DNA of 10,369 bases, taken from Bacteroidia bacterium (GTDB lineage: Bacteria > Bacteroidota > Bacteroidia > Bacteroidales > VadinHA17). The notes beneath the pieces are model-generated. The model searched no databases, had not been told where the DNA came from, and saw only the letters and a program-made list of their open reading frames with translations. The DNA lies in contig JAPLDX010000107.1 in NCBI GenBank assembly GCA_026391215.1, forward strand, positions 1 to 10,369. The letters are read 5' to 3'. This document shows, one piece after another, positions 5,743 through 9,752 of this stretch (within the stretch, counting starts at the first letter, position 1; each line of letters opens with the position of its first letter). Position numbers and translations under genes: made by a program.

Positions 5743-6603
5743 ATGAGACAACTAAAGATAACCAAATCCATAACAAACAGAGAGAGTGCTTCACTCGACA
5801 AGTATTTGCAGGAGATTGGTAAAGAAGAGTTGATATCGGTAGAAGAAGAAGTTGAACTGGCTCAGCGTATTAAAAAAGGAGACAGAACTGCTCTTGAAAA
5901 ACTCACAAAAGCAAACTTGCGTTTCGTAGTATCTGTTGCAAAACAGTATCAAAACCAGGGACTCAGCCTTCCGGACCTTATCAATGAAGGTAATCTGGGG
6001 CTGATAAAAGCTGCCGAAAAATTTGATGAAACCAGGGGTTTCAAATTCATCTCGTATGCTGTATGGTGGATAAGGCAGTCTATTCTTCAGGCGCTGGCCG
6101 AGCAATCGAGAATAGTCAGACTACCTCTCAACCAGGTTGGTTCACTCAATAAGATAAATAAGGCTTTCTCCAAATTTGAACAGGAAAACGAGCGTACTCC
6201 TTCACCTGAAGAGCTTGCAGATGTTCTTGAACTTCCAAAGGAAAAAGTCACGGATACCCTTAAAGTATCAGGAAGGCATGTTTCTGTTGATGCTCCCTTT
6301 ATTGAAGGCGAGGACAACAGTCTTCTTGATGTACTTACAAACACCGATTCACCGGTAGCTGATAAGCTTCTGATGGATGAGTCGCTCTCAAGGGAAATCT
6401 GCCGGGCTCTGGCAACCCTTACAGAAAGAGAAAGGGACATAATACGCTATTTCTTCGGTATAGGCTGTCAGGAAATGACACTTGAAGAGATAGGAGAGAA
6501 ATTCGGTCTTACCCGTGAAAGAGTCCGCCAGATAAAAGAAAAGGCTATAAGACGCTTAAGACATACATCAAGGAGCAAGTTATTGAAAGGATATTTAGGA
6601 TAA
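5743..6603 (+). CDS. rpoD: RNA polymerase primary sigma factor, Bacteroidota short form lacking region 1.1
   Basis: 286 aa with the N-terminus [26 protein letters not shown]. Region 2 reads [12 protein letters not shown]...[32 protein letters not shown]. The region 4 HTH reads [19 protein letters not shown]. Confidence 0.95.
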
Positions 6604-6619
6604 AAATGTGAAACTTCAG

Positions 6620-6651
6620 AAAAAGGCGCACTGACAACAGGCGCCTTTTTT
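6620..6651. terminator. Probable bidirectional intrinsic terminator downstream of rpoD
   Basis: AAAAAGGCGC (6620-6629) pairs with GCGCCTTTTT (6641-6650), with an inner CTG/CAG pair around an ACAA loop. There are U-tracts on both strands, and it begins 16 nt after the rpoD stop. Confidence 0.85.
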
Positions 6652-6658
6652 ATTGAAA

Positions 6659-6914
6659 CGACGAAGTCACAGACTTCGCCTAGCAGAGCGGAAGAAACGA
6701 CGAAGTCACAGACTTCGCCGAGCTGAAAGATTAAAACAAAACAGCTAAGCGAAGTTTGCAACTTCGCTTCATGACATCATAGTTTTAGATTTTGTTTTAA
6801 TTACGACGAAGTCACAGACTTCGCCGAGCTGAGCGGAAGAAACGACGAAGTCACAGACTTCTCCGAGCTGAAAGATAAAAACAAAACAGCTAAGCGAAGT
6901 TTGCAACTTCGCTT
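6659..6914. repeat. REP/REPIN (BIME-like) cluster: two 145-bp-period modules, each A-A-B
   Basis: Type A hairpins (CGACGAAGTC-ACA-GACTTCGCCG-AGCTG on the plus strand) are at 6659-6686, 6698-6725, 6804-6831 and 6843-6870. Type B hairpins (CAGCT-AAGCGAAGTT-TGC-AACTTCGCTT) are at 6742-6769 and 6887-6914. The A-A period is 39 bp with linker AGCGGAAGAAA, and the A-B spacer is 16 nt and A-rich. Confidence 0.93.
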
Positions 6915-6928
6915 TATATGCATGAAAA

Positions 6929-7495
6929 TTATCTATAGGTAAACCATGGTAAAACCAGGACAGGTATATCAATAGGCGCCTCCAGCGAAGCATAATTACG
7001 TGCACTGGAATATAGATAATCCTCTGGATTTCTGACAATTCCTGCTCTGACAGGATTATCATGGATATATTCTATTTTTTCTCTTATAAATTCATTGCTA
7101 TAAAGAAGCATAGCATGATTTTCATGGGTCCATACCTGATACACTTCATTCCTGGAATGTTGTGAAGCTCTGAATCTGAATCTGTTGAGTAGCCATTCCT
7201 TCCGACTTTCATTTACTTCAAGAATTGTGCTGATGATTCTTTTACTTGTGAATTTTTTTAAATCTCTGATATTATCACTTAATCTTCCAATACTGCTTTG
7301 TGCAACTAAATGAATATGATTTGACATGATCACATATGCGAAAATCTGAAATCCTTTATTCTCAATAGAGTATTTAAAACTATCAATTATGATATCTTTA
7401 TATACCTTCCTGGTGAAAATATCAATCCAGTCTACAATTTGAAAAGTTAAGAAATGTAAACCTTCCTGATCCTTAATCTGGTACCCTGTTGTCAT
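6929..7495 (-). CDS. REP-associated tyrosine transposase (RAYT/TnpA-REP-like; IS200/IS605 Y1 HUH superfamily)
   Basis: N-terminal HFLTFQIVDWIDIFTR, HUH motif in AYVIMSNHIHL, YQVW...NH, catalytic Tyr in KIEYIHDNPVRAG, and YLYSSA. The 188-aa ORF is intact, is flanked on both sides by short hairpin repeats, and has no adjacent tnpB. Confidence 0.9.
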   Translation of the reverse strand: MTTGYQIKDQEGLHFLTFQIVDWIDIFTRKVYKDIIIDSFKYSIENKGFQIFAYVIMSNHIHLVAQSSIGRLSDNIRDLKKFTSKRIISTILEVNESRKEWLLNRFRFRASQHSRNEVYQVWTHENHAMLLYSNEFIREKIEYIHDNPVRAGIVRNPEDYLYSSARNYASLEAPIDIPVLVLPWFTYR

Positions 7496-7593
7496 TGATT
7501 CTCTTTAGCACGTGAACAAGACACAATAACAATGCAATTTAAATTAATTTCAATAAAACATCATTATTTATGACCTTGCATTTTAATAATAAA

Positions 7594-7665
7594 CAACGAA
7601 GTCACAGACTTCGACGAGCTGAAAGATTAAAACAAAACAGCTAAGCGAAGTTTGTAACTTCGCTT
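7594..7665. repeat. Single A-B REP pair (REPIN-like unit) upstream of the RAYT gene
   Basis: A copy at 7594-7621 (CAACGAAGTC-ACA-GACTTCGACG-AGCTG), the 16-nt spacer AAAGATTAAAACAAAA, and a B copy at 7638-7665 (CAGCT-AAGCGAAGTT-TGT-AACTTCGCTT). Positions 7591-7670 match 6695-6774 at 77/80. Confidence 0.93.
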
Positions 7666-7736
7666 CATGAGATTTTTAACTGCTTAAATACATCACCTTT
7701 TAACTGAATTTATGATATTTGACCAAACAAACGTAA

Positions 7737-9752
7737 ATGGATTTTAAGCTGGTATCGGATTTTGTTCCGACAGGCGATCAGCCGGAAGCTATTGATCAGC
7801 TTGTTGACGGACTCAGGAAAGGTGTCCCATTCCAGACCCTTCTCGGGGTTACTGGTTCCGGCAAAACCTTTACAATAGCAAATGTAGTAGAGAAAGTCAA
7901 CAGGCCTGTACTTGTGCTGAGCCATAATAAAACCCTGGCTGCCCAGCTTTACGGAGAATTCCGGCAGTTCTTCCCGGAAAACAGGGTTGAATATTTCGTC
8001 TCATATTATGACTATTACCAGCCGGAAGCTTACCTGCCGGTATCAGACATATACATAGAAAAAGACCTTTCAATTAATGAGGATATTGAAAAATTAAGAC
8101 TTAGCGCAACTTCATCACTTCTCTCAGGAAGAAGGGATGTGATTGTTGTATCCTCAGTTTCATGCATATATGGTATAGGTAATCCAGATGATTACCACTC
8201 AAATACAGTTCATGTAAAAACCGGACAAAACATAGGGAGAAATCATTTTCTCAGAAAACTGGTCGATAGCCTTTATTCACGTAACGAGCTTGAATTCAGA
8301 CATGGAACATTCAGGGTTCGCGGTGATACAGTGGATATTTACCCTGCTTATGCTGATATTGCAGTGAGGGTTGTCTTTTTCGGCGACCAGATTGAGGAGA
8401 TCAGTACTTTTGATCCTGTCGATGGGAACCGCCTGGAAACCCTTGATGAATATATTGTTTATCCGGCAAATATTTTTGTTACAACCCGTGAGAGAATAAA
8501 CCAGGCTATAGACCAGATACAGGATGACCTTGTACTTCAGATTACACATTTTAATGATATAGGGAAGAAAGAAGAAGCAAAGAGACTTGAGCAGAGAGTT
8601 TCGTACGACCTGGAAATGATAAAGGAACTTGGCTATTGCAGCGGAATAGAGAATTATTCACGTTATTTTGACGGGAGAAAATCAGGTACCAGACCATTCT
8701 GTCTGCTTGATTATTTTCCGGATGATTTCATTACAGTTATCGATGAAAGCCATGTAAGCATTCCGCAGATAAGAGGAATGTACGGAGGCGATCATTCGCG
8801 AAAACAAACACTTGTGGAATACGGATTCCGGCTGCCGGCAGCCCTGGATAACAGACCAATGCGCATTGAGGAATTTGAATCCCTTACCGGCCAGATAATA
8901 TTTGTCAGCGCCACCCCTGCTGATTATGAGCTTGAAAAGAGCGAAGGGGTATTTGTAGACCAGGTCATAAGGCCGACAGGGCTTCTTGATCCGCCTATTG
9001 AGGTGCGGCCAAGCATGAACCAGATCGCCAACCTGATGGATGAGATCAGGGAGAGGACTAAATCAGGAGAAAGAACTCTGGTCACTACTATAACAAAGAG
9101 AATGGCAGAGGAACTCACAAACTATTTCCTGAGATTCGATATAAAATGCCGTTATATCCATTCGGATGTTGACACCATAGAACGGATAGAAATCATGGAA
9201 GGACTTAGAGCAGGCGCATTTGATGTGCTTGTGGGAGTAAACCTGCTGAGAGAGGGACTGGATCTTCCGGAAGTATCCCTGGTAGCAATCCTGGATGCTG
9301 ATAAGGAAGGATTTCTGAGATCATCACGGTCGCTGACACAGACGGCAGGGAGAGCTGCCCGGAATCTTAACGGGAAAGTGATAATGTATGCTGATAAGAT
9401 AACCGGAAGCATGCAGATGACAATAAATGAGACCAACAGGAGGAGAGAAAAGCAATTGAAATATAACGAAAAGATGGGGATCACCCCTGCACAGATTCAC
9501 AGAAAAACAGGATCAATATTTACAGGACTGACGGGGAAAGGGGTCTCAGTAAAAGCTTATATTGAACCTGAACGGCCTGATATTGCAGCCGACCCGGTTG
9601 TGAAATATATGAACAGGGAAGCTCTCGAAAAGACAATCGAAAAGACAAGGAAGAATATGGAAAAAGCTTCTTCCGAGCTTAATTTTGTTGAAGCTGCACG
9701 ATTCAGGGATGAGATGACTGATCTTCAGAAATTGCTTAAATCCAAAGTATAA
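7737..9752 (+). CDS. uvrB: Excinuclease ABC subunit B
   Basis: PTGDQP, Walker A GVTGSGKT, HNKTLAAQLY, beta-hairpin YFVSYYDYYQPEAY, IDESH, GFRLP.A.DNRP, VSATP, NLLREGLDLPEV, QTAGRAARN and a C-terminal UVR coiled coil (FVEAARFRD). Confidence 0.98.
   Translation: MDFKLVSDFVPTGDQPEAIDQLVDGLRKGVPFQTLLGVTGSGKTFTIANVVEKVNRPVLVLSHNKTLAAQLYGEFRQFFPENRVEYFVSYYDYYQPEAYLPVSDIYIEKDLSINEDIEKLRLSATSSLLSGRRDVIVVSSVSCIYGIGNPDDYHSNTVHVKTGQNIGRNHFLRKLVDSLYSRNELEFRHGTFRVRGDTVDIYPAYADIAVRVVFFGDQIEEISTFDPVDGNRLETLDEYIVYPANIFVTTRERINQAIDQIQDDLVLQITHFNDIGKKEEAKRLEQRVSYDLEMIKELGYCSGIENYSRYFDGRKSGTRPFCLLDYFPDDFITVIDESHVSIPQIRGMYGGDHSRKQTLVEYGFRLPAALDNRPMRIEEFESLTGQIIFVSATPADYELEKSEGVFVDQVIRPTGLLDPPIEVRPSMNQIANLMDEIRERTKSGERTLVTTITKRMAEELTNYFLRFDIKCRYIHSDVDTIERIEIMEGLRAGAFDVLVGVNLLREGLDLPEVSLVAILDADKEGFLRSSRSLTQTAGRAARNLNGKVIMYADKITGSMQMTINETNRRREKQLKYNEKMGITPAQIHRKTGSIFTGLTGKGVSVKAYIEPERPDIAADPVVKYMNREALEKTIEKTRKNMEKASSELNFVEAARFRDEMTDLQKLLKSKV

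Follow-up and report, generated by a model that had tools for sequence, protein, structure and literature searches.

A probable REPtron with non-GTAG stem-loops between a sigma-70 gene and uvrB in a Bacteroidales genome

Results

The window analyzed here, a DNA stretch of 10,369 bases, is the complete contig C62 (GenBank JAPLDX010000107.1) of a 3.39-Mb Bacteroidales draft genome in 135 contigs (assembly GCA_026391215.1; label G000). A spacer of 1133 bases separates a sigma-70 gene from uvrB and holds an open reading frame (ORF) for a RAYT, a tyrosine transposase associated with repetitive extragenic palindromic (REP) sequences, together with eight stem-loops. We regard this region as probably a REPtron, i.e. 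a single-copy, vertically inherited RAYT gene with its cognate stem-loops, placed in the branch known as subclass 2.6 or group 5. Homologous loci share a consensus for these stem-loops, in which the three bases next to the stem read G[CT]T.

The RAYT gene, encoding a TnpAREP-like Y1 HUH nuclease, occupies positions 6929-7495 on the minus strand. Its ORF is open over 188 codons, and tblastn found a single copy in the 3.39-Mb genome. The translated protein of 188 amino acids (aa) is designated P0001. It passed NF047646 (REP_Tyr_transpos, the NCBI equivalog model for RAYTs) with 98.6 bits against a cut-off of 80 and scored slightly above the threshold of PF01797 (Pfam Y1_Tnp; 27.7 versus 23). With the insertion sequence (IS) model NF033573 for IS200/IS605 only 18.6 bits were reached against a cut-off of 55; this failure speaks against an ordinary IS200 end, which the first-pass annotation of this DNA had named as an alternative identity of the repeats. 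P0001 carries the HUH motif H60-I-H62 (in NHIH), the catalytic tyrosine Y143 in EYIHDNP, the stretch W122-T-H-E-N-H and a YSSAR tail. In an alignment of 75 homologues H60, H62, W122, N147, P148 and S164 were invariant, Y143 was conserved in at least 90%, and the stretch around W122 was conserved as W-[TQ]-H-E-N-H.

An AlphaFold2 model of P0001, made from the alignment of 75 homologues, had a mean pLDDT (predicted local distance difference test score) of 92.7. Its top match in the PDB was 4ER8, the E. coli TnpAREP with a REP hairpin (E 1.2e-7, 16% identity, template modelling (TM) score 0.70 by target length), followed at ranks 2-28 by the transposases of ISDra2, IS608 and IS200. In a profile search of the PDB, positions 120-164 of P0001 aligned with residues 92-136 of 4ER8, Y143 falling on the catalytic Y115 and N147 on N119. 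Positions 84-120 of the profile corresponded to residues 86-92 of 4ER8, which leaves about 30 extra residues in P0001; they lie between the HUH block and the W122 stretch and were modelled as a helix at 99-111. Among the five residues reported to contact GTAG (W94, Q95, E100, H101 and R104; Quentin et al. 2018, PMC6006769), W94 alone was matched in P0001, by W122, the others aligning with T123, A128, M129 and Y132. P0001 was shown to be a RAYT with the HUH/Y1 fold and retained catalytic residues, in agreement with the intact HUH/Y1 gene of the first-pass annotation.

Stem-loops flanking the RAYT gene

The pattern CGAAGTYTGYRACTTCG, searched with up to two mismatches, matched eight times in the window, all inside positions 6662-7662. 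Dinucleotide shuffles gave an expectation of 0.02 matches, and 0 of 200 shuffles reached eight. The foot, i.e. the bases directly 5' of the stem in a hairpin's own orientation, was CAGCT in seven of the eight hairpins and CTGCT in the outermost one, so that the eight hairpins and feet reported in the first-pass annotation were confirmed. Two types were distinguished. The five copies of type A are all on the minus strand and read CGGCGAAGTC TGT GACTTCGTCG with a G.T at pair 3; the three copies of type B are on the plus strand and read AAGCGAAGTT TG[CT] AACTTCGCTT.

The claim that every hairpin has a stem of 10 base pairs held in part. When folded with DNA parameters, five of the eight gave 10 pairs; the three plus strand copies were perfect, and those at 6698 and 6804 contained one G.T each. 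Imperfect folds were obtained for the hairpins at 6659 (9 pairs), 6843 (an internal mismatch) and 7594 (7 pairs). The five minus strand copies were fully paired on their own strand only (-7.8 versus -6.1 kcal/mol), because the G.T turns into A.C on the other strand.

Hairpin 1 (6659-6686, minus strand, type A), the outermost copy with the 9-pair stem, reads AGGCGAAGTC TGT GACTTCGTCG. Hairpin 2 (6698-6725, minus strand, type A; CGGCGAAGTC TGT GACTTCGTCG with G.T at pair 3) stands foot-to-foot with hairpin 3 (6742-6769, plus strand, type B), a perfect stem of 10 base pairs reading AAGCGAAGTT TGC AACTTCGCTT. Hairpin 4 (6804-6831, minus strand, type A) is the tandem copy of hairpin 1 at a period of 145 nucleotides (nt). 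Hairpin 5 (6843-6870, minus strand, type A) is a copy of hairpin 2 in which a C-to-A change causes the internal mismatch. Hairpin 6 (6887-6914, plus strand, type B) lies 15 nt past the RAYT stop codon with its foot distal to the gene. On the other side, 99 nt upstream of the RAYT start, hairpin 7 (7594-7621, minus strand), a degenerate type A copy reading CGTCGAAGTC TGT GACTTCGTTG, also has a gene-distal foot; it stands foot-to-foot, over a 16-nt spacer, with hairpin 8 (7638-7665, plus strand, type B with the loop TGT).

A repeat search and blastn resolved the array into two tandem 145-nt units (6658-6917), each with hairpins A, A and B, and a third, partial copy (7554-7668) on the other side of the RAYT gene. 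The eight hairpins are contained in a 115-nt repeat that occurs in three copies (100%, 96% and 71%). Blocks of 75-80 nt with 93-96% identity were found by blastn on either side of the gene, which is bracketed by direct repeats of the A/B doublet. As the hairpins sit in three copies of the 115-nt repeat, they are not independent of each other: they are local duplicates of about three hairpin lineages and afford about three independent looks at the foot.

Foot, stem and loop at homologous loci

At E<=0.001, 4211 of the candidate proteins belonged to the family of P0001; one source gives many of them the name 'REP element-mobilizing transposase RayT'. With one genome taken per species, 79 loci with 45-79% identity were obtained, nearly all of them from Bacteroidota by their record titles; the nearest syntenic ones are labelled Bacteroidales. 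Hairpins were sought on both strands of each locus as GC-containing stems with 8 pairs or more and a loop of 3-5 nt. Strand asymmetry, i.e. better pairing on one strand, decided the orientation of a hairpin, so that the foot played no part in it.

Within 250 nt of the gene, 136 strand-asymmetric hairpins were found in 65 of the 79 loci. The last three bases before the stem were GTT in 45 and GCT in 20 of them (65/136), as opposed to 9/136 on the control side, for which the reverse complement of the 3' flank was used. Upstream hairpins were mostly on the coding strand (48) and downstream hairpins on the other strand (51), as against 13 and 24 in the opposite orientations, which means that the feet face outward from the gene. 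When the register was allowed to shift by up to 2 nt, a G[CT]T foot was present in 94 of 156 feet-distal hairpins versus 17 of 96 in the opposite orientation. Counted by locus, the foot was GTT in 34, GCT in 20 and both in 3. Thus, homologues of P0001 are indeed flanked by similar hairpins, with a G[CT]T foot in 57 of the 79 loci.

Stem and loop were evaluated on the 94 feet-distal hairpins, which had been chosen by foot alone. The stem had 10 pairs in 83 of them. Position 3 of the stem was G in 88, forming G.T in 59; position 4 was C in 89, position 5 G in 69, position 7 A in 81 and position 8 G in 81. Loops of 3 nt (56 hairpins) prevailed over those of 4 nt (29) and 5 nt (9), T was the first loop base in 88, and the five bases ahead of the foot were C-rich. 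The family consensus is a C-rich run, G[CT]T, NRGCGWAGNN in a stem of 10 base pairs and a T-first loop of 3-5 nt, and the hairpins of the window fit it. The proposal of a Bacteroidales system of RAYT-REP type (98.6 bits with NF047646), whose hairpins lack GTAG and possess a different conserved 5' foot, was borne out. CAGCT as the foot of the class proved too specific, since it is not general to the family, in which only G[CT]T, usually after a C-rich run, is conserved next to the stem.

The distribution of feet was compared with a quick maximum-likelihood tree of 75 RAYTs, from which matches shorter than 160 residues or containing stops were left out. Foot type clustered on this tree, 24 changes being needed against a mean of 37.4 after shuffling, with 0 of 200 shuffles as low. 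GCT was found in 8 of the 12 rows of the clade of P0001, two large clades had GTT, and one clade of 9 rows had another foot (mostly xCT where read) or no hairpin within 300 nt.

The sigma-uvrB site in relatives

The three nearest homologues (L027, L028 and L032, with 79%, 78% and 71% aa identity) also lie between sigma and uvrB, and their flanking proteins are 98% (sigma) and 85-89% (UvrB) identical. These syntenic orthologues contain no stops, and the ORF of the window is full length. L032 corresponds to the same contig of the congener G073, in which the RAYT gene has the same orientation and is accompanied by one intact hairpin on each side: gatGCT AAGCGAAGTC ttca GACTTCGCTT on the 3' side and atcGCT CGGCGAAGTC ttca GACTTCGTCG on the 5' side. 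The orthologous feet read tGCT and cGCT, and therefore only GCT is common to the orthologous loci. A gene fragment of 80% identity was found beside uvrB at a contig end of G002, so that the RAYT gene occupies the sigma-uvrB locus in G000, G073/L032, L027, L028 and probably G002. Nucleotide identity to G073 is 70% for the RAYT gene, 81% for sigma and 76% for uvrB.

The RAYT cassette of G073 (L119, G073:C4:195800-198900) is bracketed by a 252-bp direct repeat of 99.2% identity at 697-948 and 1822-2073. The repeat contains the last 168 nt of the sigma gene, the sigma terminator and a degenerate hairpin, and its second copy starts 5 nt past the GCT foot of the hairpin 5' of the gene. Tandem duplication or a Campbell-type integration of a circle are possible origins.

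The sigma-uvrB spacers of twelve congeners were compared by reading the printed sequences by eye. Six spacers of 91-299 nt showed no such hairpin by this inspection, and four (G010, G018, G001 and G006) contained one or two. G010 has acGCT AAGCGAAGTT tgt..., G018 a single hairpin with GCT on both strands, G001 a doublet of type A and type B, and G006 GTTC GGCGTAGTC tcca...; of the two remaining spacers, that of G057 holds a degenerate copy and that of G073 the RAYT gene. A search of G001, G006, G010 and G018 with P0001 returned no gene at E<=1e-5. These congeners keep hairpins without the gene as do some E. coli strains, which have lost tnpAREP precisely and kept the flanking bacterial interspersed mosaic elements (BIMEs; Ton-Hoang 2012). 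Recombination between the A/B doublet repeats of the window would leave one doublet, as is present in G001. The 'empty' spacer of another congener (G023, L111) contains a different palindrome, GTAGTGTCATGCCATGGCATGACACTAC, with GTAG at its start and CTAC at its end; hairpin elements of different kinds may accumulate at the sigma-uvrB intergenic site.

Dispersed hairpins in the genome and the order

The exact motif had 9 matches in the genome, 8 of them at the RAYT locus. In a relaxed search for CG[AT]AG with two free pairs and a loop of 3-5 nt, complementarity being checked, 24 loci were obtained. Seven are in the window and 17 are spread over 11 other contigs; in view of the latter, the idea of a hairpin population confined to the locus was dropped. 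The genome-wide count of the motif called for by the first-pass annotation is accordingly 8 local copies plus one by the exact motif, to which the relaxed search added 17 dispersed related loci. Given the draft assembly in 135 contigs, 8 local and 17 dispersed hairpins are a lower bound. The core CGTAGTT was present in 16 of the 17 dispersed loci, 12 of which form six pairs 51-65 nt apart; in 11 of the 17, the stem base carried GCT or GTT on one strand or both. Ownership of the CGTAGTT family by another Y1 gene was considered and rejected: none of the six other PF01797 matches in the genome adjoins such a hairpin, the nearest being 23 kb away, on C100.

For the order, 201 genomes of at least 90% completeness were sampled. 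The strict pattern GYTNRGCGWAGNN-N{3,5}-NNCTWCGY had 204 matches in 39 genomes, compared with 22 matches for the pattern read backwards as a control, and G000 had the most matches (21) of all. A P0001-like gene (E<=1e-20) was found in 50 genomes. When pattern and gene were cross-tabulated by hand, they co-occurred in 19 genomes, while 20 had just the pattern, 31 just the gene and 131 neither of them; this table is to be read with the limits that the strict pattern misses other stem variants, that related genomes are not independent and that drafts may lack repeats. Of the 22 genomes with at least four pattern matches, 15 had a P0001-like gene. The link between gene and hairpin across the order is real but loose.

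Discussion

Comparison with known systems

A Bacteroidetes subfamily of RAYTs with non-GTAG hairpins is already known, and the system in the window is probably a well-preserved case of it rather than a new one. The 63 proteins that Quentin et al. (2018; BMC Genomics 19:475, PMC6006769) assign to subclass 2.6 come mostly from Bacteroidetes, have a median of 179 aa and show the motifs NH[LIV]H, WQ, YIH[QN]NP and an SS tail; this subclass is identical with the RAYT group 5 defined by Bertels et al. (2017; PMC5581495). Its genes are described as flanked by 'atypical secondary structures' other than GT[AG]G hairpins, with copies elsewhere in the genome. In Table S1 of that paper, many hairpins of the subclass begin with GCTA, GCTG, GCTC, TGCT or CTGG, the hosts with the first four prefixes being Aequorivita, Flavobacterium indicum, Flexibacter, Owenweeksia, Pedobacter, Spirosoma and Zobellia; in at least one case (F. 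johnsoniae) the strand given is opposite to that of the others. The substrate class, which the first-pass annotation had thought possibly undescribed, is therefore in print at class level, although the accessible parts of Quentin et al. give no foot consensus for subclass 2.6. Bacteroidetes are not mentioned in the accessible parts of Nunvar 2010 and Ton-Hoang 2012, and a literature search of papers outside subscription access returned no relevant description of a Bacteroidota or Bacteroides RAYT or REP beyond Quentin 2018 and Bertels 2017. New here is the consensus across the family; together with the wobble pair G.T, the placement of feet distal to the gene and the way in which foot variants cluster with RAYT clades, it refines published knowledge.

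P0001 resembles subclass 2.6 in its Bacteroidetes host, the low copy number, its length (188 aa versus a median of 179), its NHIH motif, which fits NH[LIV]H, and its YSS tail. The insertion of the subclass between helix alphaC and strand beta4 is also found in P0001 (about 30 residues, with the helix 99-111), and the flanking hairpins likewise lack GT[AG]G and have copies elsewhere in the genome. Stems of the form ...CGGATT TGC AATCCG... in Table S1 resemble those beside the distant homologues L012-L014. P0001 differs by one residue in each of two motifs, having WT and YIHDNP in place of the published WQ and YIH[QN]NP; relatives at 38-45% identity (L013, L014 and L021) read WQ and YIHNNP. Apart from these two residues P0001 fits the sequence signature of subclass 2.6/group 5, to which it probably belongs.

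With the E. coli REPtron (TnpAREP, RayT/YafM, PDB 4ER8, with GTAG-REPs and BIMEs; Ton-Hoang 2012, Messing 2012, Corneloup 2021) the locus shares the HUH/Y1 fold, a single-copy gene at a fixed locus, hairpins in alternating orientation with variable local amplification, two alternating hairpin types (Y/Z in E. coli, A/B here) and a conserved stem feature that departs from Watson-Crick pairing (a bulge in E. coli, the G.T at pair 3 here). It differs in sequence (16% identity), in the foot (G[CT]T versus GTAG), in the extra helix at about 99-111, in having tens rather than hundreds of dispersed copies, and in a stem that is conserved across families instead of being species-specific. Canonical GTAG-REPs have GT[AG]G 0-2 nt 5' of the stem; in the window this position is taken by CAGCT in 7 and CTGCT in 1 of the 8 hairpins. 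The high dispersed copy number typical of such REPs was likewise not seen in the 3.39 Mb of this genome.

In IS200/IS605 elements such as IS608 both ends lie on one strand, and excision proceeds from a single strand. The transposases of this group (IS608 and ISDra2 TnpA) have the same HUH/Y1 fold as P0001, and their subterminal hairpins possess a short 5' guide sequence; P0001 differs from them in failing the IS200 model, in having YIHDNP instead of the Y...Q tyrosine motif and in being encoded by a single-copy gene, and the proximal hairpins are on opposite strands with distal feet. Di Nocera et al. (2013; PMC3733652) described TIRtrons, in which RAYT-like genes (four TIRYT groups) of species without GTAG REPs have long terminal inverted repeats (TIRs) on their flanks. 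These are unrelated to REPs, some carry the motif GGGGWSAS, and they may be self-complementary and form moderately abundant families, dimers or clusters. Going by this text description, the short REP-like stem-loops flanking the gene here differ from the long TIRs.

Alternative explanations

The gene and its two flanking foot-bearing hairpins could constitute an autonomous mobile unit, IS200/IS605-like or a 'TIRtron', whose ends would be the hairpins, which would then not be REPs mobilised in trans. The outward feet on both sides are reminiscent of terminal inverted repeats, and P0001-like genes occurred in just 3 of 24 congeners in one draw. Several gene matches, some with internal stops, were found in single genomes of the order sample (8 in G220, 7 in G170 and 5 in G206), 16-mers flanking group 5 genes are about as frequent as those flanking insertion sequences (Bertels 2017, PMC5581495), and the cassette of G073 is bracketed by a 252-bp, 99% identical direct repeat of host DNA. 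Mobility of this kind is nevertheless unlikely. The gene of the window is single-copy and found at the same sigma-uvrB locus in G000, G073/L032, L027, L028 and probably G002, and its divergence (71-79% aa identity, 70% nt identity to G073) is in the range of that of its neighbours (81% nt identity for sigma and 76% for uvrB in G073), which fits vertical descent. In addition, the IS200 model failed, ends on opposite strands are at odds with single-strand excision of the IS608 type, and the hairpins also occur without the gene, both at the sigma-uvrB locus and elsewhere.

That the hairpins are ordinary terminators or mRNA-stabilising structures of neighbouring genes, functionally unconnected to the nuclease, is very improbable. 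REPs have been reported to terminate transcription and to stabilise mRNA (Quentin 2018, PMC6006769), and a consensus scan gave 6 terminator-like minus strand sites where 0.5 were expected from shuffles. The reverse complement of hairpin 6, 15 nt past the RAYT stop codon, is followed on the strand of the gene by AGCTGTTTTG and thus resembles a terminator; it may serve the RAYT gene in this function, which would be compatible with a REPtron. Eight arrayed copies, however, far exceed what termination needs, the sigma gene has a likely terminator of its own at 6620-6650, the copies upstream of the RAYT gene face the wrong way to terminate it, and foot, stem and loop are tied to the gene family in 57 of 79 loci from many Bacteroidota families. 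An Rfam search of positions 6400-7900 returned no family at its gathering score; the best was STnc40 with 30.1 bits against 45, overlapping the sigma terminator. We also consider it improbable that the locus is a decaying relic, with a gene intact by chance or for some other host function and hairpins that are unprocessed fossils. Dispersed copies are few and differ from the local ones, several local copies (6843 and 7594) are degenerate, and many congeners that keep hairpins have lost the gene. Against decay, every catalytic and family-invariant residue is kept, the ORF is full-length and 71-79% identical to stop-free syntenic orthologues, and the local arrays hold duplicated units of 96% identity, which points to recent local amplification.

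Several observations weigh against a REPtron with its own foot. Among the 79 homologous loci, a different foot (mostly xCT) was read in 12, and 10 lack hairpins within 300 nt. The uniformity of CAGCT in the window is largely due to recent local duplication, and the clustering of feet was measured on a quick tree on which relatedness alone yields some clustering. The dispersed copies carry T where the local ones carry A at stem position 6, and 6 of the 17 lack a G[CT]T foot. The copy number is low compared with the hundreds of classical REPs, so that present-day activity may be weak or absent. In the order sample 20 genomes have the pattern without a P0001-like gene and 31 the gene without the strict pattern. 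Lastly, the role ascribed to the foot in subclass 2.6 is an analogy.

Proposed mechanism and recognition code

By analogy with E. coli TnpAREP and IS608 TnpA, the REPtron enzyme, a monomeric HUH nuclease, would bind a stem-loop while that strand is single-stranded. It would read the GCT 5' of the stem (within CAGCT), the conserved stem base NRGCGWAG, often with G.T at pair 3, and the T-first loop. Y143 would then cut nearby and become linked to a 5'-phosphate, and the strands would be rejoined; repeated cutting and rejoining would create and duplicate hairpins and foot-to-foot doublets and occasionally disperse them. Binding, the position of cleavage, the foot as a guide and mobility at the present day are all extrapolated from the characterized enzymes.

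It is conceivable, though somewhat doubtful, that this Bacteroidota branch of RAYTs has its own recognition code, consisting of a G[CT]T foot that tracks the enzyme clade (GCT, GTT or xCT), NRGCGWAG, a near-obligatory G.T at pair 3 and a T-first loop. If so, the hairpin would be conserved across whole bacterial families, unlike the species-specific REPs of proteobacteria. How RAYTs select and cut hairpins has been established for the GTAG-using proteobacterial groups 2 and 3 only, to which the biochemistry in the accessible text of Corneloup 2021 is confined. In the model given there, the last two bases of GTAG pick the CT cut site by cross-pairing. Should cross-pairing of this kind hold here, a GCT foot would specify an AG cut site and a GTT foot AA, and the branch, cutting at a dinucleotide other than CT, would lend itself naturally to testing the guide model. 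This compact natural system combines a foot of another kind, a wobble pair that is conserved and, in the same genome, a second RAYT of GTAG type, which would make the guide question directly testable. For annotation, the family consensus reveals Bacteroidota hairpins that are missed by GTAG-based searches.

Neighbouring genes and other hairpin families

The sigma-70 gene (5743-6603, plus strand) encodes regions 1.2, 2, 3 and 4, and uvrB follows at 7737-9752 on the plus strand. Just past the sigma-70 stop codon, positions 6620-6650 contain a likely terminator (AAAAAGGCGC-11 nt-GCGCCTTTTT, then TATT), which is kept in the spacers of congeners; hairpin 1 of the RAYT array begins 9 nt beyond it.

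G000 encodes a second RAYT of 169 aa (C57:21062-21571, plus strand; 82.1 bits with NF047646, cut-off 80) with the motifs DHIH, WQQRF and YIKNNP. A single-copy palindrome of 33 nt, GTGTAGAGACAGGTC tca GACCTGTCTCTACAC, with GTAG at both feet, lies 54 nt past it (C57:21625-21657). A canonical GTAG system and a GCT system therefore coexist in this genome.

Five further Y1_Tnp matches were found in G000 (C31:297-764, C101:10655-11089, C100:45451-45897, C119:58505-58987 with one TAG inside, and the fragment C93:6-143). The three that were scored all passed the IS200 model (55.5-78.6 bits), and the full-length matches have a Y..NQ..HH motif like that of Quentin's subclass 1.2. Hairpins of the form TT[AG][TC]CGTCAGC tgaa/ttca GCTGACGGTAA flank the C101 gene (C101:10366 and 11114), and another one is at C101:17013. 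About 70 sites on many contigs of G000 (e.g. C3:6051, C8:13919, C29:11128 and C77:40767) belong to an abundant strand-asymmetric hairpin family unrelated to the RAYT hairpins, (T)CCCCCTC[CT]TT[GA]C with the loop gaa, ttca or ttta followed by G[CT]AG[AG]GAGGGGG(A), with core counts of 27, 26, 8 and 8. No associated gene was seen for this family, which was noticed in passing and not followed by a search.

A second type of hairpin with a GCT foot was observed at distant Bacteroidota loci (L030:560-581; L041:3297-3385; L024:747-767 and 1986-2006). It reads gctg/gctc CCGCGCGAA tcct TTCGCGTGG, with a variant CCGCGCGTT tgt, and corresponds to the Flavobacterium indicum records in Table S1 of Quentin 2018 (PMC6006769). 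The owner of this type is probably a different RAYT within that subclass.

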